Positions 11,742 through 56,483 of a DNA stretch of 64,000 bases are shown one piece after another. Origin of the DNA: Bacillota bacterium. GTDB taxonomy: Bacteria > Bacillota > Clostridia > Acetivibrionales > JANLFN01. The notes below the pieces were generated by a model that was not told the origin of the DNA, searched no databases, and saw nothing but the letters and a program-made list of their open reading frames with translations. Location of the stretch: NCBI GenBank assembly GCA_023397675.1, contig JAEWTV010000082.1, forward strand, positions 14,984 to 78,983, read 5' to 3'. Each line of letters opens with the position of its first letter. The stretch's first letter is position 1. Made by a program: the position numbers and the translations under genes.

Positions 11742-13316
11742 CTATTTCTCCTTGCTTTTTTTTGATGACTGTCTGACAAGGTTTTTGGCTGCAACAATTT
11801 TAGGCCTTAAGGTCATAGTCCACCATGGTGCACGAATCCACGCATCCTGTCCGTCATGGTCTTTAGCCCTGGTAACATTCATCATGTAAGGTACTCCGAA
11901 TGACCGGATACTCATTAAATGAAGATACATAATAAAAAAGGTTATCAAAAATCCATAGATACCCATAAATGCTGCACCAAATAAAAAAAATGTCCTAAAA
12001 ATGATGGTTGCGGTTATAAAATTCATGTTAATCAATGTAGTAATTCCTGTTATAGCAGTTACTATTATTACAGGAGCACTTACCAGTCTTGCTTCTACAG
12101 CAGCTTGTCCCAAAACAAGCGTACCGACAATGTTTACTGCTTGGCCTATAGGAGATGGCATTCTGGTACCTGCCTCGCGCAAAATATCAAATATAAAAAG
12201 CATCAAAATAAGTGAAAGTACTGTCGGAAAAGGAACACCTTGTCTGGAAGCAGAGATACTCAATAGCAAGGGTGTAGGCAACATTTCCTGATGGTAAGCG
12301 ACAATTGACAGGAATATTGCAGGAATAGCAACGGAGGTTACTGCAGTAAAACCCCTTATAGCACGATTAATTGAACCAAAAATAAAACTGTTATAGTAGT
12401 CTTCATTTGCTTGAAAATTCTCGACAACCAGATATGGAACTGTTAATACAAAGGGACTTCCGTCAACAAATAATGCTATTCTGCCTTCCAGAAGCTTTGC
12501 TGCGATAACATCAGGGCGTTCACTTGAACCAACCGTTTCAAACGGAGAAAAAGGTGCATCTCTTATAAGCTCCTGAATGTATCCTGAATCAATTATGCCG
12601 TCGATATCTATTTCATTCAGACGTTTCTCCAATTCATTCATTACATCCTTTAAAACCAAGCCTTCAATATAACAAATACATGTTTTTGTATTTGTCCTCT
12701 CCCCAATCTCCTTAAATTTAAACTTTAAGTCAGGATTTTTTATTTTACGACGAACCAATGACAGATTCATTATGATTGATTCAGTAAAGCCTTCCCTTGG
12801 ACCACGCACAACCCTTGTAGACTCCGGTTCAGTAATTGACCTTGTCTGCCAACCCTTGGAACTGATAACCAATGCTTTATCGTAACCTTCAAGTAAGAAA
12901 AGAGTATCCCCATAAATAACGGAACTTACTATATTATTGATGTTAGACTCAACTGATACATTATTGGAAACAATAACTTTTTTCCTTAACTCATCCAATA
13001 AATTACCGGTATCGATTTCCTTTGTCAAGTCACTGCGAAGAATGGGCTGTATAATGTTTTCATTAATAATTTCTGTATTTACCATTCCTTCAACGTATAT
13101 AATACAGCAATCAGCAGCTTTTAAACTCTTATTCTGAAATTCTCTTGTGATTAATGTTTCATCATTACTGAAAATGTTTTTAAACAGAGAAATATTTTCA
13201 GTTAGTGAGTTAACCAAAGCTTTTTTATCATTTTTTTTATTGTCATTTTTATTATCTTTATTTGTTGCATTATTGATTTCTTTAGTTGATTTATTTTCAG
13301 TTTTTTTCTTTTGCAT
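11742..13316 (-). CDS. spore germination protein, GerAA/GerXA-type
   Basis: Motifs VRGPREGFTES, SERPD and EDYY with C-terminal TM helices. The start was placed at the ATG at 13316 (GGGTGA RBS) rather than the ORF-track start at 13373. Confidence 0.9.
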   Translation of the reverse strand: MQKKKTENKSTKEINNATNKDNKNDNKKNDKKALVNSLTENISLFKNIFSNDETLITREFQNKSLKAADCCIIYVEGMVNTEIINENIIQPILRSDLTKEIDTGNLLDELRKKVIVSNNVSVESNINNIVSSVIYGDTLFLLEGYDKALVISSKGWQTRSITEPESTRVVRGPREGFTESIIMNLSLVRRKIKNPDLKFKFKEIGERTNTKTCICYIEGLVLKDVMNELEKRLNEIDIDGIIDSGYIQELIRDAPFSPFETVGSSERPDVIAAKLLEGRIALFVDGSPFVLTVPYLVVENFQANEDYYNSFIFGSINRAIRGFTAVTSVAIPAIFLSIVAYHQEMLPTPLLLSISASRQGVPFPTVLSLILMLFIFDILREAGTRMPSPIGQAVNIVGTLVLGQAAVEARLVSAPVIIVTAITGITTLINMNFITATIIFRTFFLFGAAFMGIYGFLITFFIMYLHLMSIRSFGVPYMMNVTRAKDHDGQDAWIRAPWWTMTLRPKIVAAKNLVRQSSKKSKEK

Positions 13317-22887: not shown

Positions 22888-24171
22888 TTATTTTGCTTCC
22901 AGCTTCTCGATACTTGCAAGCTGAACACATATGCAAAAGACTTCAATTGCCTTTTTCAACTCTTCAAGTGATGGGAAAGTAGGTGCAATCCTTATGTTTC
23001 TGTCGTTAGGGTCTTTACCGTAAGGGTATGTTGCACCTGCATTAGTCATTACAACTCCTGCTTCACGTGCCATTGCAACAACCTTTTTTGCACAGCCGTC
23101 AAGAGTGTTAAGGCTAATGAAATAACCGCCGTTTGGCTTGTTCCACCATGCAATGTTCTTGCCGCCTAGCTCCTTATCAAGTATGTCAAGCACAGCATCA
23201 AACTTTGGCTTTATAATTGCAGCATGCTTTTTCATGTGCAGTTTCATATTATCGAGTGTTTTAAAATACTTAACATGACGGAGCTGATTTATTTTATCCG
23301 GACCTATTGTCTGGAAGAACATCTGCTTCTTTATGAAATTAATATTTTCTTCAGATGCTGCCATAACAGCTACACCTGAGCCTGGGAAGCTTACTTTTGA
23401 AGTAGATGCAAACATGTAAACCATATTTGGATTACCCTGCTTTTTACACTCTTCAAAAAGGTTCTTGAGTTTATCAGATTTGTCAGTCAAATCATGAATG
23501 ATGTATGCGTTATCCCAGAATATTCTGAAATCCTTAGCCTTAGGCTTAAGTCTTGCAAAACGATCTACAACCTCATCAGAATAAGTTATTCCATCAGGAT
23601 TGCTGTATTTTGGAACGCACCATATACCTTTTATAGTTTCATCGCTTGAAACAAGCTCCTCTACCCTGTCCATATCAGGACCGTCATTCTTCATATCTAT
23701 TGAAATCAGTTCAAAACCGAAAAACTCAGTTATCGCAAAATGTCTGTCATAGCCAGGGCTTGGGCAAAGGAATTTAACCTTGGGAAGCTGTCCCCATGGC
23801 TTTTCACTTCCTACAATACCATGAGTAACGGCACGTGAAACTGTACCATACATTAATTCTAAACTGGAATTGCCGCCAATAATTACTTCTTTTGGGTCAA
23901 CCTCCAGCAAGTCTGCAAACAGCTGCTTTGCTTCAGGAATACCATCAAGAAGTCCGTAATTGCGGCAATCGGTACCGTCAGAAGCTTTCATGCTGTCTTT
24001 GGCAGTAAGTGCATCCATCATATCTAGAGAAACATCAAGCTGCTCTTTGCACGGCTTACCACGTGACATATCATATTTTAGATTTTGAGATTTAAAATCA
24101 TTATATCTTTTTAATAGATTTTCTTTATTGTTTAAAAGCTCTTTTGCGTTAATGGAATTAATATCATTCAT
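22888..24171 (-). CDS. PLP-dependent aminotransferase (class I/II fold)
   Basis: 427 aa with an aminotransferase-like layout, including SKVSFPGSGV around the presumed PLP lysine. Subfamily not resolved. Confidence 0.75.
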   Translation of the reverse strand: MNDINSINAKELLNNKENLLKRYNDFKSQNLKYDMSRGKPCKEQLDVSLDMMDALTAKDSMKASDGTDCRNYGLLDGIPEAKQLFADLLEVDPKEVIIGGNSSLELMYGTVSRAVTHGIVGSEKPWGQLPKVKFLCPSPGYDRHFAITEFFGFELISIDMKNDGPDMDRVEELVSSDETIKGIWCVPKYSNPDGITYSDEVVDRFARLKPKAKDFRIFWDNAYIIHDLTDKSDKLKNLFEECKKQGNPNMVYMFASTSKVSFPGSGVAVMAASEENINFIKKQMFFQTIGPDKINQLRHVKYFKTLDNMKLHMKKHAAIIKPKFDAVLDILDKELGGKNIAWWNKPNGGYFISLNTLDGCAKKVVAMAREAGVVMTNAGATYPYGKDPNDRNIRIAPTFPSLEELKKAIEVFCICVQLASIEKLEAK

Positions 24172-24437
24172 TTTTATATACCCCCGGTTCGGCAGATAAA
24201 CTGTAAATTTTTCTTAAAATGCCCATAAATAAAGGATTCATTCTATAAGACATTAATATAATTGTATTATAGATGAACCAAAAATGCAAGTTGAATATAT
24301 AGATAAATTCAAAAATGAGGGAAAGTAATAAGAGGCTATTAAAGCTGATTCATAATTTCGGTAATTATTATCCTCATAAAATGAATTAGAACGATGGAGG
24401 TTGGTGCAAAAATATCTTCTTATCTATATTTATAAAA

Positions 24438-24478
24438 GTAAAAATAATAGTCCCTGTAAGGGACTTGGTTCTGATAGC
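24438..24478 (-). repeat. 41-nt hairpin module, copy 1 (terminator-like on the minus strand)
   Basis: Stem AGTCCCT-GTA-AGGGACT. On the minus strand it is followed by ATTATTTTTAC. About 80-85% identical to 51650-51689. Confidence 0.8.
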
Positions 24479-24535
24479 CGTGGGTTTAGGTATAATTATC
24501 AATTGCTAAAATATCTATAGTTATTCTTCGAAGTG

Positions 24536-25104
24536 TCAATGCTGGACTTTGCCGCTTTTGAACTGCCCAAAATCGGCGGAAAAGGCACCGCTCGCCGCGG
24601 AGGCCAGCCCTGTGAAAGCCTACTGCGGCATCTGTAAGCTGCTCAATCGCTCTCAAGCCGGGACGATGCTACTTCGCTATCCTGCTCAGACGCTACTTGA
24701 ATGGCCATCCGGGCCATTCACCGGCATTCGACCTTCGTTCGCAGCAACACCTGCCAGCTCGGCTTTCAATGGGCAGAGATGCGGGTAAACTCTTCGAAGC
24801 AGCCACGTTAGAACTTTGTTTACAAAGTTCGGTATAGCCACCCATGACCCTAGCCCTGAAGGAGCTTGGTGGAGTGACATAGAAATTCCTGCATGCATGT
24901 ATCAAGTCCGGCGAATTCGTCATGGAAGACGGATTCAGGTGGGTATGTCATGGATGACATTGGAACCGGCCGGACAAAAGCAAGTATGCAGGCTTGGAAG
25001 TTCTGTCACGGAATCCGTTGCGCCCGGCTTTTGAAGCCATCACGGCGCTTGAGTGAAGAGTTTTCCTCCGATTTTGCTCTCTCAAAAGCGGAAAAGGAAT
25101 ATTA
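24536..25104. repeat. G+C-rich structured repeat element, contiguous copy (candidate large ncRNA or non-autonomous mobile element)
   Basis: Homologous to 51388-51648 plus 53853-54209. About 58-62% G+C by hand count over 24541-24660, in an AT-rich genome. Many local and long-range helices, and the termini 24552-24583 and 25061-25091 pair. Confidence 0.85.
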
Positions 25105-25138
25105 AAATTTAAGGTGTTTAGTTAATTGACTTATTCAG

Positions 25139-25639
25139 TTATTCATACCCTTTCTCCTCTTTCCAGCCACCAATTAGATCTACCCACAAATATGCAGACA
25201 CTTTTCCATCCTGTGGCTTGGTTACAGCAATATACATATCCCTCTGAGTATGTGTCCCCGCCTTTATTACGCTTGTAAGATCCATTATTGTGTAGTCATA
25301 ATTTGTTTTTGTAAGACCCCAATCTGAAAAAGTTGGCGTGTCGTAATCATTATAATTTAGTCTTTCAAATTTTTTATAATAACCAAGTACTTTATCTACC
25401 TCATCTGCCCGCATGTTCAACTTAACATTTATTACATAGGAAGTTCCATACCCTGATTCCACCATATATTTTTCTATATACGAATCATTCGGTATGTTTG
25501 TATTGAAATATTTATTTACTTTTTCAGCACTGGGATTTTTAATACTTAGATAAAAAAATACATTAGTTATAAGTAAGCAAATAAAAACAATAACTAGAAT
25601 TGATCCAATAATAATAGCCCATTTAACACTTTTCTTCAC
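25139..25639 (-). CDS. N-terminally membrane-anchored hypothetical protein
   Basis: A GTG at 25639 after a GGGGGG RBS gives MKKSVKWAIIIGSILVIVFICLL (TM anchor). No recognisable domain. Confidence 0.55.
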   Translation of the reverse strand: MKKSVKWAIIIGSILVIVFICLLITNVFFYLSIKNPSAEKVNKYFNTNIPNDSYIEKYMVESGYGTSYVINVKLNMRADEVDKVLGYYKKFERLNYNDYDTPTFSDWGLTKTNYDYTIMDLTSVIKAGTHTQRDMYIAVTKPQDGKVSAYLWVDLIGGWKEEKGYE

Positions 25640-25888
25640 CTTTATACCCCCCAAAAAAAGTACAGAACAGACTCAACTACTTCTTACCGTTTGTTATAGG
25701 AACATCCTAATTGTTATATATAGTATACGATTTAGAAGAATAATTTTCCAGGGATATTATCATTATTGTGCAGCAACGAAAAAAGTAGAATGAAATAAAA
25801 AAGCACGAACCGGTAAAAACCCCAATGCGTACGTATTAACACATCTTACATTATATTTTAAGTCTTGGATTTAATCTGCAGTTAAAAT

Positions 25889-46232: not shown

Positions 46233-47831
46233 ATGTTTAATTATATATATAAAAAAATGCACTATTTAAAAATAAAAAATCAAGAATCAGCTTTCTCTCC
46301 CATGGAAGATACTAAGGATGATAACTCCTTAGTAGATAACTTTGAAAGGAATTTAAATACCTTCAAAGATTTACTGGGAGTTAACACTGACGTTGTAATA
46401 AGGGATTTTTTATTTGGACATAACAAAGCAAATAAAAGTGCTATCATATATATAGAAGGCATAACTGATAAATCAGTAATAAATGACAATATTATAAAAC
46501 CTATCATTTACGACCTTCTTCTTCTGCCAAATGATAAAGAAGCCCGTAATGTGAGTATTGATACAATAAAATCTACTTTAATATCAGTAGGAAATATAAA
46601 AAAGTCTTCCTCCATAAATAATCTAATTGACAGTTGTCTTTCAGGAAATTCGATATTATTGGTAAATGATTCAAATGAAGCTCTTATAATAAGTACAGTC
46701 GGCGGAGAAAAAAGAAGTGTGGAAGAACCTAAGACCGAAGCTTCGGTTAGAGGCCCAAGAGAAGGCTTTACTGAGGCTTTAAAAACAAATTTATCATTAT
46801 TGCGCCGTAAAATAAAAAGTGCTGACTTGACATTCGAAACTGTTACTATTGGTGAAAAGACAAAAACAAATGTAAGTATAGCATATATAAAAGGTATAGC
46901 AACAAAAGAACTTATCGATGAAATAAAAAACAGGCTGAATAAAATTAAAATTGATTCAATTCTTGAATCCGGATATATTGAACAATTGATTGAGGATGCC
47001 CCTTTTTCGATATTTTCAACCATCGGTAACAGCGAAAAGCCTGATATAGTATCAGCAAAGCTGCTTGAAGGCAGGGCTGCAATATTTGTTGACGGTACAC
47101 CTTTTGTTCTTACTGTTCCAATGGTTTTTATTGAAAACTTTCAAAGTTCGGAAGATTATTATTCACGTCCATATTTTGCAAGCATGCTGAGGATATTGAG
47201 GTTTTTTGCATATGGCTTAAGTATCCTGGCACCTGCTACTTACGTTATTTTATCATCATTTCACCAGGAACTGATACCCACCCCATTGCTGTTTACAATG
47301 GCTGCATCACATGAAGGAGTTCCTTTTCCATCCGCAGTGGAAGCATTTATTATGATAATTACCTTTGAAATACTGAGAGAAGCCGGGGTTCGTTTACCCC
47401 GCCCTGTCGGACAGGCTGTAAGTATAGTTGGAGCTCTGGTAATAGGTGAATCGGCTGTCAATGCCGGGATTATTGGTGCGCCTATGGTAATTGTTGTTGC
47501 TATAACCGCTGTTTCAAGCTTTGTAGTTCCTGCACAAACAGATAGTGGAGCTATTTTGAGAATTATTCTTTTATTGCTTGCCGGTTTTATGGGTGGATTT
47601 GGAATCTTGATAGGTTTACTTGGACTTATGGTTCATATGGCATCGCTAAGATCTTTTGGAACACCTTATCTTTCACCCATTGCTCCACTAAGCATCGGTG
47701 ATTTGAAAGACAGCTTTATAAGAAGTCCTTTATGGATGATGAATAAACGGCCAAAAGGTATTGCGTTCAACTCATCAAAAAGGCAGGCTGATGATATGAA
47801 GCCAAAACACCCGAAAAAGAAGGACAATTAA
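46233..47831 (+). CDS. spore germination protein, GerAA/GerXA-type
   Basis: Motifs VRGPREGFTEA, SEKPD and EDYY with C-terminal TM helices. The exact start is uncertain. Confidence 0.9.
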   Translation: MFNYIYKKMHYLKIKNQESAFSPMEDTKDDNSLVDNFERNLNTFKDLLGVNTDVVIRDFLFGHNKANKSAIIYIEGITDKSVINDNIIKPIIYDLLLLPNDKEARNVSIDTIKSTLISVGNIKKSSSINNLIDSCLSGNSILLVNDSNEALIISTVGGEKRSVEEPKTEASVRGPREGFTEALKTNLSLLRRKIKSADLTFETVTIGEKTKTNVSIAYIKGIATKELIDEIKNRLNKIKIDSILESGYIEQLIEDAPFSIFSTIGNSEKPDIVSAKLLEGRAAIFVDGTPFVLTVPMVFIENFQSSEDYYSRPYFASMLRILRFFAYGLSILAPATYVILSSFHQELIPTPLLFTMAASHEGVPFPSAVEAFIMIITFEILREAGVRLPRPVGQAVSIVGALVIGESAVNAGIIGAPMVIVVAITAVSSFVVPAQTDSGAILRIILLLLAGFMGGFGILIGLLGLMVHMASLRSFGTPYLSPIAPLSIGDLKDSFIRSPLWMMNKRPKGIAFNSSKRQADDMKPKHPKKKDN

Positions 47832-51178: not shown

Positions 51179-51387
51179 AAGTACCTCTATGATATTTGTT
51201 TTGGATTATAATACCATAGCATAAGCGATAAACTCAAGATATAGGAACATAATAAGCAAAATAGGAAACTCCCGTGCTAAATAATACACCGGAAGTTGGT
51301 AATTTTAGCATATAAAGATGATATAGTACTGTGGGTTAAAACCCACGGCGCGAATTAAATACATATTAATTATGGGGTAAAACCTTT

Positions 51388-51648
51388 TCAATCCTTTATT
51401 TGCCGCTTTTCAGCGACGTGAAGCGGCGCAAAAGTCGCCGCTCGCCGCGGAGGCTGCCCTTGTGAAAGCCTACTGCGGCATCTATAAGCTGCTTAATCGT
51501 TCTCAAGCCGGCACGATGCAACTTCGCTATCCTGCTCAGATGCTACTTGAATGGCCATCCGGGCCATTCACCGGCATTCGACCTTCACTCACAGCAACAT
51601 CTGCCAGCTCAGCTTTCAATGGGCATGGGATGCGGGTATGACTCTGTA
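51388..51648. repeat. G+C-rich structured repeat element, 5' half of the split copy
   Basis: About 90% identical by eye to 24587-24790 (roughly 19 differences in about 205 nt). Starts with the same TCAAT...TTTGCCGCTTTT as the contiguous copy. Confidence 0.85.
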
Positions 51649-51649
51649 G

Positions 51650-51689
51650 GTAAAAGAATAGTCCCTGTAAGGAACTAGATTTTGACAGC
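51650..51689 (-). repeat. hairpin module, copy 2 (acts as a minus-strand terminator for the cargo operon)
   Basis: Stem AGTCCCT-GTA-AGGAACT, followed on the minus strand by ATTCTTTTAC. It lies about 25 nt downstream of the stop of ORF 51714-52100. Confidence 0.75.
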
Positions 51690-51713
51690 ATTGAGTAAAA
51701 TCCACGCGTTATT

Positions 51714-53327: not shown

Positions 53328-53837
53328 ATGAGAATAATTGAGACTGAAAAGTTATGCCTAAGGGAACTTAGAATTAATGATAAAAAAGATTTAATGAAAG
53401 TTCTTTCAAATCCTGAATCTATGGAGTTTTACCCACATCCCTTCAGTGAAGATGAAGTTGAAAGGTGGATTCAATGGAATTTGGAAAATTACAAAAAATA
53501 TAAACATGGACTGTGGGCCGTAATATTAAAAGAAGGTGACGTATTTATAGGAGATTGCGGTATAACGATGCAGGACATTGATAATGAAATTATGCCGGAG
53601 ATAGGTTTTCATATTATTAAGGAATATTGTAATAAAGGATATGCAACAGAAGCTGCTCTCGCATGCAAGGAATATGCATTTAATGTATTACATTATCCTC
53701 GGATATTTTCATATACAAGAGTTTTAAACTTACCTTCGCAAAAAGTTGCTAAGAAGATTGGTTTGCAGCCATATAAATATTTTGAGAAAAACGGTGTAGA
53801 ACAAATTGCGCAATATGCAATCAATGACACAATTTAA
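53328..53837 (+). CDS. GNAT family N-acetyltransferase (RimJ/RimL-like)
   Basis: 169 aa with GFHIIKEYCNKGYATEA, an acetyl-CoA pocket-type motif. AGGTGA RBS. Confidence 0.8.
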   Translation: MRIIETEKLCLRELRINDKKDLMKVLSNPESMEFYPHPFSEDEVERWIQWNLENYKKYKHGLWAVILKEGDVFIGDCGITMQDIDNEIMPEIGFHIIKEYCNKGYATEAALACKEYAFNVLHYPRIFSYTRVLNLPSQKVAKKIGLQPYKYFEKNGVEQIAQYAINDTI

Positions 53838-53852
53838 TTTACTTCTTTCCTA

Positions 53853-54209
53853 GGGCGAAACCTGTCAGCTCAGCTTTAAATCGGCAAGGAATTAGGGTAA
53901 ATTCTTCGAAGTAGCTTTCGTGAGAACTTTGTTTACAAAGTTCGGTATAGCCTCCCGTTACTCTAGCCTTGAAGGCGCTTGGTGGAGTGACTAGAAATTC
54001 CTGCCTGCATTTATTAGAGTCTGGCGAATTCGTCATGGATGACGGATTCAGGTGGGTATGACAGGATGTCATTAGAACCGGCCAGTCAATAGTAAGTATG
54101 CAAGCTTGGAAGTTCTGTCACGGAATCCGTTGCGCCCATTTTTTAGAGCCACCATGGCGCTTGAATGGTGACTTTTGCAAGCTTTTGGTCATTCAAAAGC
54201 TGAATATTA
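53853..54209. repeat. G+C-rich structured repeat element, 3' half of the split copy
   Basis: Collinear with 24741-25104 (about 80% identity by eye). Shares GAACTTTGTTTACAAAGTTC, CGGATTCAGGTGGGTATG and GGAAGTTCTGTCACGGAATCCGTTGCGCCC exactly. Confidence 0.85.
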
Positions 54210-54254
54210 TCGTAGTTTTATGTTTTTTAATAAGAAAAAGGAAAAGATTAAAAT

Positions 54255-54280
54255 CAAAAAAGCCCTCCGCTAGGAGGGCT
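54255..54280 (-). terminator. intrinsic terminator after ORF 54346-54852 (end of the glyA unit)
   Basis: Stem AGCCCTCC-GCTA-GGAGGGCT followed on the minus strand by TTTTTT. Confidence 0.8.
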
Positions 54281-54345
54281 CATGATTTAGTTAAGCGGAT
54301 AATCCTTATTTGACAGAATACTCTCTGTTATTGAAGACAAATCCG

Positions 54346-54852
54346 TCATTGGTAATCACTGTTGGTTAAATCCCCTATATAATGATTCCATATTCTTAAT
54401 TGTTCTTCCAGTTCTGAGACAATAGCATAGGTCTCTTGAGGAGTCTCTGTAAAATCCTTCATGGTTAATCCTATTTCATCTTTTAACTCAAGAATATAAT
54501 GCGCATAAAATTTTTCATTATCGAATTCTGGATTTTTGTAAAGATTATTGTTGAAATTCGCTATTTGTCTGTTTGTCTTTTCTGTTTTCGACAGTGACAT
54601 TTGCGGAATCAATGTATTATAATCCTTTTTCTGAAATGTTATTGTCTTCCATAAATAATCTGCATAAGAAGATTTTTTATTGGAATCATTTTTTATTTCA
54701 AATCCGAAAAATTTAGCTAAATGTTTTATTTCAATATTTGCAATTCTTATATCATTTTTATACGATTTATACAGTTTATTGTTAATGATAATACCCGTGA
54801 AAACTAATACTACGATAATGCTTATAGTAATAATTAATTTTTTCTTCTTCAA
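54346..54852 (-). CDS. N-terminally membrane-anchored hypothetical protein
   Basis: Starts MKKKKLIITISIIVVLVFTGIII (TM anchor). No recognisable domain. Lies 26 nt downstream of glyA. Confidence 0.55.
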   Translation of the reverse strand: MKKKKLIITISIIVVLVFTGIIINNKLYKSYKNDIRIANIEIKHLAKFFGFEIKNDSNKKSSYADYLWKTITFQKKDYNTLIPQMSLSKTEKTNRQIANFNNNLYKNPEFDNEKFYAHYILELKDEIGLTMKDFTETPQETYAIVSELEEQLRIWNHYIGDLTNSDYQ

Positions 54853-54877: not shown

Positions 54878-56116
54878 TTACCTGTATAGCGGGTACTTGT
54901 CGCACAAAGCTGTTATCCTTTTCTGCACTGATTCTTTAGAATTCTCAAAGTCAGTGAGTGCAAGGCTTATGCAGTCTGCAATCTCTTCAAAATCTGATTC
55001 AATCATTCCCCTTGAAGTCACAGCTGGAGTTCCAAGTCTTAAACCGCTAGTAACCGTTGGCTTCTGAGGATCAAATGGAATACAGTTGTAGTTTACTGTG
55101 ATTCCTACCGCATCAAGAAGCTTTTCTGCTTCTTTACCTGTAAGATTCTTGCTTCTTAAATCTATAAGCATAAGGTGATTGTCGGTTCCGCCTGAAACGA
55201 GGTTAAAGCCGTGTTCGGTAAGTGATGTTGCAAGAGCTTTTGCATTTTTTACAATCTGAGTTTGGTAAGCTTTGAATTCGTCAGTCAAAGCTTCCTTAAA
55301 GCATACAGCTTTTGCAGCTATTACGTGCATCAAAGGTCCTCCCTGTATTCCAGGGAAAACAGCCTTGTCTATCTGCTTTGCAAATTCAGCCTTACAAAGT
55401 ATCATACCGCCTCTTGGACCTCTGAGAGTCTTGTGAGTGGTAGTTGTAACAAAGTGTGCATGAGGTACCGGACTTGGATGAAGGCCAGCTGCTACAAGAC
55501 CTGCAATATGTGCCATATCAACCATGAGGTAAGCTCCTACCTCGTCTGCAATTTCTCTGAAGGCTTTAAAATCAATTATTCTTGAATAAGCACTGGCGCC
55601 AGCAACGATGATTTTAGGCTTATGCTCAATTGCTTTTTTCCTTAATTCATCATAATCAATCCTGCCGTCAGTTTCCTTAACACCGTAAGGAACTACATTA
55701 TAGTATTTTCCAGACATATTAACAGGACTTCCGTGTGAAAGATGTCCTCCGTGAGCGAGATTCATTCCTAGAATGGTATCGCCAGGTTGAAGTACTGAAA
55801 AATAAACCGCCATGTTAGCCTGTGCACCTGAATGAGGCTGAACATTTGCGTGTTCTGCACCAAAAAGCTCTTTAGCCCTTTCAATTGCAAGTGTTTCTAC
55901 TATATCAACAAACTGGCACCCGCCGTAATACCTTTTTCCCGGATACCCTTCGGCATATTTGTTTGTCAATGGTGTACCCATTGCTTCAATAACTGCGTTG
56001 CTTACAAAATTTTCTGAAGCTATAAGTTCAATTTTATTTCTTTGACGATTAACTTCCATTTCAATTGCTTCAGCTACTTCTTTGTCTACTTTTTTGATCT
56101 CATTAGTACTGTACAT
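54878..56116 (-). CDS. glyA: serine hydroxymethyltransferase
   Basis: PLP-lysine motif [14 protein letters not shown], 412 aa. AGGAGG RBS. Confidence 0.97.
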
Positions 56117-56249: not shown

Positions 56250-56282
56250 TGAATAAACATGAAATATGCTTAAGAAAATATA

Positions 56283-56455
56283 CTCTGTCCTTTTGCCTGA
56301 GAGATTACAGCTAAAAAGCCTTGCCCCTTCGGCGCCTTGACGGTCTCTCCAGAGATGCGTCCATTCATGGTCTACTGTAACGTTTAATGCTTGTTACTTT
56401 ACCTGAGAGTATAACTCCTTCGGTGTACCTTTTAGGCATCTCTCCCATGAATATC
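56283..56455 (-). promoter_or_regulatory. tandem glycine riboswitch (two aptamers)
   Basis: Minus strand reads GGGAGAG...CACCGAAGGAG...CUCUCAGGUAAA, then CUCUGGAGAG...CGCCGAAGGGGCAA...CUCUCAGGCAAAAGGACAGAG. This closely matches the conserved glycine aptamer cores. Confidence 0.85.
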
Positions 56456-56483
56456 ATTCGCCAGTTATTAAGTTTCCATAAAA

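Follow-up and report, generated by a model that had tools for sequence, protein, structure and literature searches.

A TwoAYGGAY motif at the core of a putative modular, non-coding repeat in an uncultured Bacillota lineage

Introduction

Mosaic intergenic repeats are familiar from several bacteria and include pneumococcal BOX, enterobacterial BIME/REP and ERIC, Neisseria Correia and Bacillus cereus bcr1. Proteins of the RsmE/CsrA type recognize the RNA consensus (A/U)CANGGANG(U/A). The described RNA family that lies closest to the element reported here, TwoAYGGAY (Rfam RF01731), was reported in 2010 as a probable RNA found in human-gut metagenomes, Clostridiales and gamma-proteobacteria, with no known function (PMC2864571). 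It was proposed in RMfam to be a CsrA-binding small RNA (sRNA) of Clostridia (PMC4333381), and Rfam places it in CL00106, its clan for Csr-Rsm protein binding (PMC5753348). Here we analyze a 64,000-nucleotide (nt) stretch of an uncultured Bacillota genome (assembly GCA_023397675.1, contig JAEWTV010000082.1), hereafter the window. Among named organisms, Pseudoclostridium thermosuccinogenes and Acetivibrio stand nearest to this genome, with proteins 70-80% identical. Our subject is a 540-nt non-coding unit in the window, copy A, a full-length copy at 24547-25096 that an earlier note, made from this sequence alone, had bounded at 24552-25091. On balance, we lean towards the view that copy A is a full-length copy of a modular repeat with a TwoAYGGAY core and inverted, self-folding ends, that its copies recombine with one another, and that its + strand RNA binds a protein, possibly of the CsrA type.

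Results

A dispersed family of full, half and mosaic copies

Copy A forms a G+C-rich non-coding island between an aspartate aminotransferase gene (22888-24171, - strand) and a 171-aa open reading frame (ORF; 25139-25654, - strand). A second set of element sequences in the window, B-left and B-right, covers about 51404-51640 and 53855-54205. Orthologous loci, numbered with an L, were taken from relatives with 95-99% identical flanking proteins. BLAST and hidden Markov model (HMM) searches with copy A found full copies in these loci at L014:16400-17009, L016, L017:14071-14680 and L018:18536-19137, together with lone 5' halves, lone 3' halves and fragments. In all, the HMM searches returned about 19 independent 3' domains and about 10 5' domains, distributed over full, half and mosaic copies. 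A full copy runs in the order terminal module, 5' domain, hinge, 3' domain and inverted terminal module (alignments A1-A4); the ends are its most variable part and the interior its most conserved, reaching 95% in the 5' domain.

In a scan of 185,579 species genomes, the invariant 20-mer GTCACGGAATCCGTYGCGCC had 13 matches on 8 contigs of the metagenome-assembled genome (MAG) OH_PDB_31, which puts the copy number there at 13 or more, a lower bound. Elsewhere in that scan it matched once in MAG OH_CDB_54 and gave 5 isolated matches in unrelated phyla, without further similarity. BLAST found no match to the element in plasmid and phage collections, nor did a scan of viral contigs with its conserved blocks. 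A scan of JGI metagenomes with a pattern of loop plus junction from the 5' domain gave 5 matches, all by chance and again without further similarity. Copy A is interrupted after 54 nt in an independent assembly of the window's own genome (L002, position 1-54; Logan contig SRR13358454_2532), a break to be expected should that genome carry the element in several copies. These sequence comparisons show copy A to be a member of a dispersed, modular, non-coding repeat family of this uncultured Bacillota lineage and not a single RNA gene. Structure can be inferred from the family's roughly 20 diverged copies, a natural set drawn from two related MAGs and the contigs of several close relatives.

The TwoAYGGAY core

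The 3' domain of copy A and that of B-right contain the following features.

24811-24830, + strand: hairpin GAACTTTG-TTTA-CAAAGTTC, with 98.7% of cells paired in 19 copies
24861-25024, + strand: stem GGAGCTTGG / CCGTTGCGCC closing the TwoAYGGAY domain; helix 3 of the RNAalifold consensus, 98% paired, invariant and hence beyond covariation testing
24867-25016, + strand: TwoAYGGAY motif of copy A (RF01731, 52.3 bits; gathering score 43), made up of outer stems, junction stem CCGGC/GCCGG, hairpin 1 GAATTCGTC-ATGGAA-GACGGATTC and hairpin 2 ATGTC-ATGGAT-GACAT, with compensatory changes in helices 4-9
53900-54142, + strand: 3' domain of B-right, with TwoAYGGAY at 53979-54129 (Rfam, 53.4 bits; alignment A2)

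RF01731 is matched in 9 further copies at 45.0-58.3 bits, always on the + strand of the element. A permissive Rfam search of 24300-25300 found TwoAYGGAY only, with no match to OLE, ROOL, GOLLD, raiA or other large closed non-coding RNAs. Two adjacent GGA-loop hairpins are present, with loops ATGGAA and ATGGAT in copy A and ATGGAT and A-GGAT in B-right. Across 19 copies the GGA of the loops is invariant or nearly so, while the preceding position may be A, C, G or T, and the loops read CANGGANG. The copy A loops CAUGGAAG and CAUGGAUG fit the Csr/Rsm recognition consensus.

Covariation was measured on an RNAalifold consensus of 19 independent 3' halves, against 500 shuffles and slid controls. Paired cells amounted to 96.3% (90.6% in shuffles), 17 pairs were changed on both sides (11.0 in shuffles, at most 9 in slid controls), and 92 cells were changed on both sides (29.5 in shuffles, at most 19 in slid controls); none of the 500 shuffles reached the observed values. 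The long enclosing stem (helices 4-6) is 93-98% paired, with 5 pairs changed on both sides. Compensatory changes are found in hairpin 1 (GAATTCGTC..GACGGATTC versus GAATCTGCC..GGCAGATTC) and in the outer stem (AGAAATTCC..GGAAGTTCT versus AGAGCCATCC..GGATGCTCT), and the junction stem is CCGGC/GCCGG in copy A and CTGGC/GCCAG in B-right. One pair of hairpin 2 co-varies strongly (GC in 8 copies, AU in 4, UA in 4 and UG in 2). Outside the motif, the next inner position of the GAACTTTG/CAAAGTTC hairpin changes from T..A to C..G in L014, L018, L021 and L035. Read on the + strand, G-U far exceeds A-C (81 versus 7 cells, 16 versus 6 pairs), which identifies the + strand as the folding strand. Both strands fold far better than shuffles (z = -4.85 and -6.11), as any helix-rich sequence would.

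These results bear on the first of several alternatives, proposed in the earlier note: one large non-coding RNA, closed by a helix between its 5' and 3' ends that co-evolves within each copy, with an internal pseudoknot of CCTGCAT/ATGCAGG and CGGATTC/GAATCCG. All four strings, and the two hairpins pointed out with them, occur exactly where that note had placed them, and much of its general picture holds, in that the element is a structured single-strand element whose internal hairpins are kept by compensatory changes. The minimum free energy (MFE) fold of copy A is indeed closed by a terminal helix (z = -4.85). CCTGCAT/ATGCAGG is a real helix, now recognizable as part of the TwoAYGGAY outer stem, and the flipped base pair noticed in ATGTCAT/ATGACAT belongs to the co-varying pair within hairpin 2. 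With more copies compared, compensatory change in the TwoAYGGAY stems exceeds shuffles, and none is seen for the pseudoknot or for the proposed hairpin AGCCC-TGAA-GG(A)GCT.

The second pseudoknot helix, CGGATTC/GAATCCG, varies at one position only; there it is broken in 7 of 18 copies, and nowhere does it show compensation. At that position, CGGATTC becomes CAGATTC (G to A, 7 copies); hairpin 1 compensates this same change (C-G to U-A in 6), while the distant partner stays C. GAATCCG is invariant even in L014-type copies in which CGGATTC is deleted. The apparent pairing arises because GAATCCG is one base off the hairpin's own 5' strand, GAATTCG. The AGCCC hairpin has lost its outer pairs in 7 and 4 of 19 copies, with no compensatory change. 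Its GGCGC can pair instead with GCGCC downstream of the motif, in a helix that is invariant; the closing stem takes up GGAGC of this hairpin plus part of GAATCCG, and the family form of the stem enclosing TwoAYGGAY is GGCGCTTGG/CCGTYGCGCC.

Self-folding terminal modules and the pairing of ends

Each end of the element consists of a module of about 60 nt.

24547-24609, + strand: 5' terminal module of copy A (CTTTGCCGCTTTT, box1, AAAATCGG, GGAAAAG, box2, CCGCTCGCCGCGGAGGC); R1 78.8 bits; alignment A4
25031-25096, + strand: 3' terminal module of copy A (hairpin TCAC-GGCGCTTGA-GTGA, then AGAG..CTCT, helix S1, interleaved with CCGATTTT..AAAAGCGG, helix S2); R1 68.7 bits
51398-51459, + strand: terminal module of B-left; R1 77.4 bits
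54143-54207, + strand: 3' terminal module of B-right (hairpin CCAT..ATGG, TGAC..GTCA, AAGCTTTT..AAAAGCTG); R1 62.3 bits

R1 is a covariance model of the terminal module in 3'-end orientation, and the 5' module of copy A was therefore scored on the - strand. It matches only at element ends, four times in the window and once, as a solo module, in 327 kb. The 5' and 3' ends are inverted copies of one terminal module.

We set 30 distinct terminal modules, from both ends, in one orientation. Constant parts are TTTTNC, CCGNTTTT, AAAAGCGG and a small hairpin of the form YCRY-loop-RYGR; box1 and box2 vary. In every module type box2' is complementary to box1' (GACGCC..GGCGTC, GCGAC..GTCGC, TGCC..GGCA, GGAG..CTCC, TGAC..GTCA and CACC..GGTG). 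Across the 30 modules, 92.3% of cells are paired and 60 cells carry double changes, compared with 18.8 +/- 3.8 in shuffles (0/500) and at most 12 in slid controls. All 4 pairs of box2':box1' (S1) and 3 of the 4 pairs of the small hairpin co-vary. A third helix, CCGNTTTT:AAAAGCGG (S2), interleaves with S1, giving a predicted H-type pseudoknot, in which a UUUU loop beside a UUUU/AAAA stem would allow U-A-U triples.

The earlier note had instead proposed that the two ends of each copy pair with each other and co-vary between copies, each left end matching its own right end better than the other copy's left end. The strings on which this rested are in place (in copy A, CCGCTTTTGA at 24552-61, AAAATCGG at 24569-76, GGAAAA at 24578-83, TTTTCC at 25061-66, CCGATTTT at 25068-75 and TCAAAAGCGG at 25082-91; in the second set, GCAAAAGTCGCC at 51428-39 and GGTGACTTTTGC at 54167-78). 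Within the window the pairing is strong: RNAduplex gave -37.8 kcal/mol for the ends of A (-16.7 +/- 3.5 in shuffles) and -38.3 for those of B (-18.6 +/- 3.3), with none of 1000 dinucleotide shuffles as low in either case, and own-end pairs were 7-8 kcal/mol better than the cross-pairs (-30.3 and -30.4). Across the family the picture differs. Eleven 5' ends were compared with nineteen 3' ends over 36 positions.

A 5' end with A 3' end: 27/36 complementary, rank 9 of 19
B-left with B-right: 27/36 complementary, rank 16 of 19
Nine own-end pairings, A and B included: 24-28/36, ranks 6-17 of 19
Best partners, all 3' ends of other copies: 31-34/36, rank 1

The own-end complementarity of A and B is the family median, and duplex energies are -58 to -77 kcal/mol for best partners and -20 to -43 for own ends. 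The three short end helices of copy A are constant motifs common to all module types, and the variable boxes of its two ends (GAACTGCCC versus GCTCTCTC) do not match. In L018, a double change from CCGC..GCGG to CCTC..GAGG keeps the local hairpin and breaks pairing with the copy's own 5' end. Together with the local compensatory changes, this double change indicates that the structure selected in the ends is local. The ends do pair beyond all shuffles and are inverted repeats, but their pairing is not a closing helix under selection and own ends do not match best; it is a by-product of inverted duplication, with end types shuffled between copies. With ends that come from a pool of interchangeable modules, end-to-end covariation can be simulated by just two paralogous copies in a single stretch.

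The single RNA with a closing helix is accordingly left with the terminal helix of the MFE fold, the strong own-end duplexes in the window and the real CCTGCAT/ATGCAGG helix. Own-end complementarity that is median and never best, compensatory changes that keep helices inside each end, a pseudoknot helix lost where hairpin 1 compensates, and the many one-ended copies (3'-half-only or 5'-half-only) all speak against it, as does the finding below that B-left and B-right are not one copy. We think it highly improbable that the element is of this kind, though less so than a related idea in which 5'-half-only and 3'-half-only transcripts anneal in trans through near-perfectly complementary terminal modules, rebuilding the full RNA. 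The best partners of 5' ends are indeed 3' ends of 3'-half-only copies (33-34/36, -65 to -77 kcal/mol). Inversion of the same module by recombination would, however, by itself give the 'version II' 3' ends such matches, and local folds would compete with the duplex, making assembly in trans the remotest of the explanations considered.

Near the ends lies a further small repeat, the U module.

24441-24485: U module of repeat D7, made up of hairpin AGTCCCTGTAAGGGACT and the beginning of hairpin GCCGTGGGTTT, located 66 nt upstream of copy A
51652-51696: U module after B-left that reads, on the - strand, as a terminator-like hairpin following the 128-aa gene

In a terminator scan the first U hairpin reads as an intrinsic terminator on the - strand. 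Members of this family (AGTCCCTGTAAGGGACT + GCCGTGGGTTTTAACCCACGGC) also occur at 51331-51346, at L023 505-648 and at L029 2535-2671. Of the second hairpin, 350 kb of sequence contain 19 copies; almost every one has an element copy no more than a few hundred bases away, and some form inverted doublets. We considered the U hairpin as part of the element and rejected this, since doublets of it exist and it turns up at places other than element ends; it constitutes a REP-like repeat of its own.

The 5' domain and the hinge

The remaining parts of copy A are the 5' domain and the segment that joins it to the 3' domain.

24607-24775, + strand: 5' domain of copy A, a predicted long irregular stem GCCC..GTGAAAGCC .. 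GGCTTTCA..GGGC (MFE fold; RNAalifold, 11 copies), whose inner three-way part includes hairpin GAATGGCC-ATCCG-GGCCATTC
24776-24810, + strand: hinge and linker (GATGCGGGTA / AAACTCTTCGAAG...), which bound the 5'-half-only and 3'-half-only copies

The 5' domain, about 170 nt long, has no Rfam match. Only 3 of its pairs show compensatory change, as its conservation of about 95% leads one to expect. A coding role was considered, as a 57-codon frame is open in all copies, and rejected because variable sites fall 11/12/9 over the codon positions. All half copies break at the hinge, GATGCGGGTA / AAAYTCTWCGAAG.

Two other segments can stand at this side of the element. Six copies have a 'W' segment of about 200 nt in place of the usual 5' domain (L021 3900-4060, L017 11640-11840, L023, L025, L027 and L028 4930-5060); on its reverse strand lies a hairpin GGTGCAT..CCATGGATGGGG..ATGCACC with a CAUGGAUG-like loop, and it has no Rfam match. 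A small module, CTGGGGCGAAACCTGTTCGCC(GCC)ACGGTTTCCCCCAG, replaces the terminal module ahead of the 5' domain at L037 7137-7190, L028 4647-4700, L006 9640-9698 and L029 2746-2800, and is also found 3' of the full copy in L018.

Neighborhood and rearrangement

The second set of element sequences in the window contributes two further features.

51460-51640, + strand: 5' domain of B-left, 91% identical to copy A, ending at the hinge and running into the U module
53855-53899, + strand: start of B-right, where the final 45 nt of the 5' domain recur in diverged form (repeat family D4, 78%)

B-left and B-right had been taken for one copy split by a 2.2-kb insert. The block inside the supposed insert (a 128-aa membrane protein, MerR and a Big_5 lipoprotein) adjoins an SDR gene in all seven relatives' loci, with a GNAT gene added to it in L019 and L020. 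The gap between the SDR and 128-aa genes contains a 5' half in the window (B-left) and in L014-L017; in L018 the copy there is full-length, and L019 has a 3' half in inverted orientation. On the other side of the block there is a full copy in L014, L016 and L017, a 5' half in L018 and B-right in the window. A conserved block flanked by varying copies means that B-left and B-right are two partial copies, and the split-copy interpretation must be given up. We also asked whether the 45-nt direct repeat around the block marks the att sites left by an integrated element, and rejected the idea: every relative has the enclosed genes as core genes at that locus, and an integrase is absent. At site A, L006 has an internally deleted 150-nt remnant and L003 has no element, its flanks not being collinear. 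No empty site was found at B-right either, as the comparison with L019 is not collinear; what distinguishes the B sites between genomes is rearrangement rather than a simple insertion.

Between glyA and the Big_5-MerR-128aa block lies a variable segment (L014-L018, e.g. L014 11431-16152; window 53328-54852). It holds one or two Kelch-repeat genes and a 464-aa gene in the relatives, and a GNAT gene and a 168-aa ORF in the window; element copies are found at its borders. In related MAGs, several element copies stand beside defense-type genes encoding OLD-family ATPase-TOPRIM, GmrSD_N and HNH-SAVED proteins (L028 2115-4145, L033 920-2509, L029 5448-6650).

Such an arrangement raises the question of mobility. 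The element might be a non-autonomous DNA transposon derivative resembling a miniature inverted-repeat transposable element (MITE), whose terminal inverted repeats of about 60 bp bind a transposase encoded elsewhere and whose RNA-like interior is a passenger. Terminal inverted repeats are present, and for every 5' end type the genome contains, at some place, a nearly perfect twin in inverted orientation; copies are many, dispersed, intergenic and without orientation preference, some are truncated, and they occur at variable segments and beside defense genes. Yet variability is highest at the ends and conservation highest in the interior, the reverse of MITEs, and the interior is under strand-specific compensatory evolution. 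Moreover, the flanks of 7 two-ended copies share no consistent target-site duplication, there is no clean empty site (L003 being not collinear and L006 an internally deleted remnant), no transposase adjoins any of the 13 loci of MAG OH_PDB_31, where no autonomous relative with these ends was seen either, and plasmid and phage collections and viral contigs gave no match. We regard this explanation as unlikely, although it is the likeliest of the alternatives.

Alternatively, the folded + strand could act as DNA. In a single-stranded DNA element of the REP/REPIN or attC kind, it would be the substrate of a strand-specific recombinase or Y1 transposase, and copies would bound exchangeable segments. 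Self-folding end modules with compensatory change would suit this, as would the associated REP-like palindromes with their inverted doublets, the recurrent breakpoint at one hinge and the variable genes that copies flank (Kelch, GNAT, OLD-family nuclease, GmrSD, HNH-SAVED). We nevertheless think it very unlikely: a core of 150 nt matches an RNA family with conserved loops, which suggests that a protein reads the loops in RNA form, the loci examined showed no RAYT, IS200 or integrase gene, and the flanked blocks were not seen at other sites.

Three further features were noted in the surroundings. The 174-aa ORF at site A in L003 (9204-9728) contains a run of 24-nt tandem repeats (ATCATTTTTAAAATCGCACATGTC and variants), and the 171-aa ORF at the corresponding place in the window has no detectable DNA similarity to it. 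Tandem glycine riboswitch aptamers on the - strand (56275-56362, 55.3 bits; 56382-56457, 40.5 bits) lie about 160 nt upstream of the serine hydroxymethyltransferase gene glyA (54878-56116, - strand), as they do in L017, L018 and L022. A 77-nt inverted repeat (12727-12803 / 46752-46828) is 77% complementary, its arms 34 kb apart.

Discussion

The evidence from the TwoAYGGAY match, the strand-specific compensatory changes and the array of full and partial copies is best accommodated, in our view, by the recombining modular repeat with a protein-binding + strand RNA that we put forward at the outset. We propose a model in which transcription of the repeat yields a folded + strand RNA that is bound by a loop-specific protein. 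The family assignment would make this protein one of the CsrA/Rsm type, and the two adjacent GGA hairpins would fit one dimer; a CsrA-type protein would, on our analysis, be the only candidate partner with any basis. The self-folding terminal modules may serve as structural caps or processing signals. Homologous recombination between copies could generate half copies, chimeric ends and rearranged neighboring genes.

Several observations weigh against this model. Promoter and terminator scans of the + strand of copy A found no sigma-70-like promoter and no intrinsic terminator. Orientation relative to neighboring genes is about 50/50, so read-through transcription cannot be general. Each copy has only two GGA loops, and in the L014-type copies (L014, L016, L017) the two hairpins are fused into one, with one hairpin lost. 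No CsrA-like ORF was found in the 64-kb window by a crude pattern search. The copies are related by descent, and cell counts therefore overstate independent events. S2, and with it the pseudoknot within the terminal module, has a single pair that co-varies (C-G to A-U, 7 modules), and two of its positions are weak. Finally, high copy number and inverted terminal repeats also give the look of a DNA transposon derivative.

It is tempting to speculate further that TwoAYGGAY is no independent regulatory sRNA but the RNA core of a self-propagating element without an ORF. Its folded + strand, made up of the core and the self-folding terminal modules with their triplex-forming potential (UUUU loop, UUUU/AAAA stem), would be recognized by machinery encoded elsewhere that copies or recombines the element, and the element would drive the exchange of neighboring segments, defense genes included. 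We hold this to be decidedly unlikely, a notch below the MITE-like transposon and above the single-stranded DNA element.

TwoAYGGAY has been an orphan since 2010, with a bioinformatic CsrA proposal only, and in one lineage it now turns up as the core of a many-copy, 540-nt modular repeat. This raises the questions of where the copies come from, what recognizes the terminal modules, and whether copy number titrates a protein. The core family and the CsrA idea are already published. Apparently new are the modular unit of 540 nt, its inverted, self-folding terminal modules and its presence in many dispersed copies, although the repetitive nature may already be reported in a September 2026 preprint (10.64898/2026.09.22.753630). 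That preprint has TwoAYGGAY in its abstract; it uses 'TwoAYGGAY element' four times, 'TwoAYGGAY repeat' once and 'repetitive' 52 times, and 'transposon', 'recombinase', 'CsrA' and 'inverted repeat' each zero times.

Copy A resembles TwoAYGGAY as described in its core, which scores above the gathering threshold, in its long enclosing stem, in its two adjacent GGA-loop hairpins and in its occurrence in Clostridia. It differs in that the motif makes up 150 nt of a 540-nt unit with a 5' domain, an extra closing stem and self-folding inverted terminal modules, in the many dispersed full and partial copies, and in the loop consensus of the lineage, which is ANGGAN and not AYGGAY. With the Csr/Rsm sRNAs (CsrB, RsmY, RsmZ) it shares hairpin loops that fit CANGGANG and two sites spaced for one dimer; it departs from them in the number of sites, two per copy against their 5-22, and in occurring many times in the genome where they come from one highly expressed gene, and the CsrB/Rsm RNAs have no counterpart of the surrounding modules. 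BOX, BIME/REP, ERIC, Correia and bcr1 are alike in their dispersed intergenic copies, optional modules, lack of coding capacity, inverted terminal parts able to pair and association with small palindromes. Against these mosaic repeats, the 540-nt unit is much larger, its ends are more variable than its interior, and that interior is a multi-stem structure with strand-specific compensatory evolution and a match to a curated RNA family.

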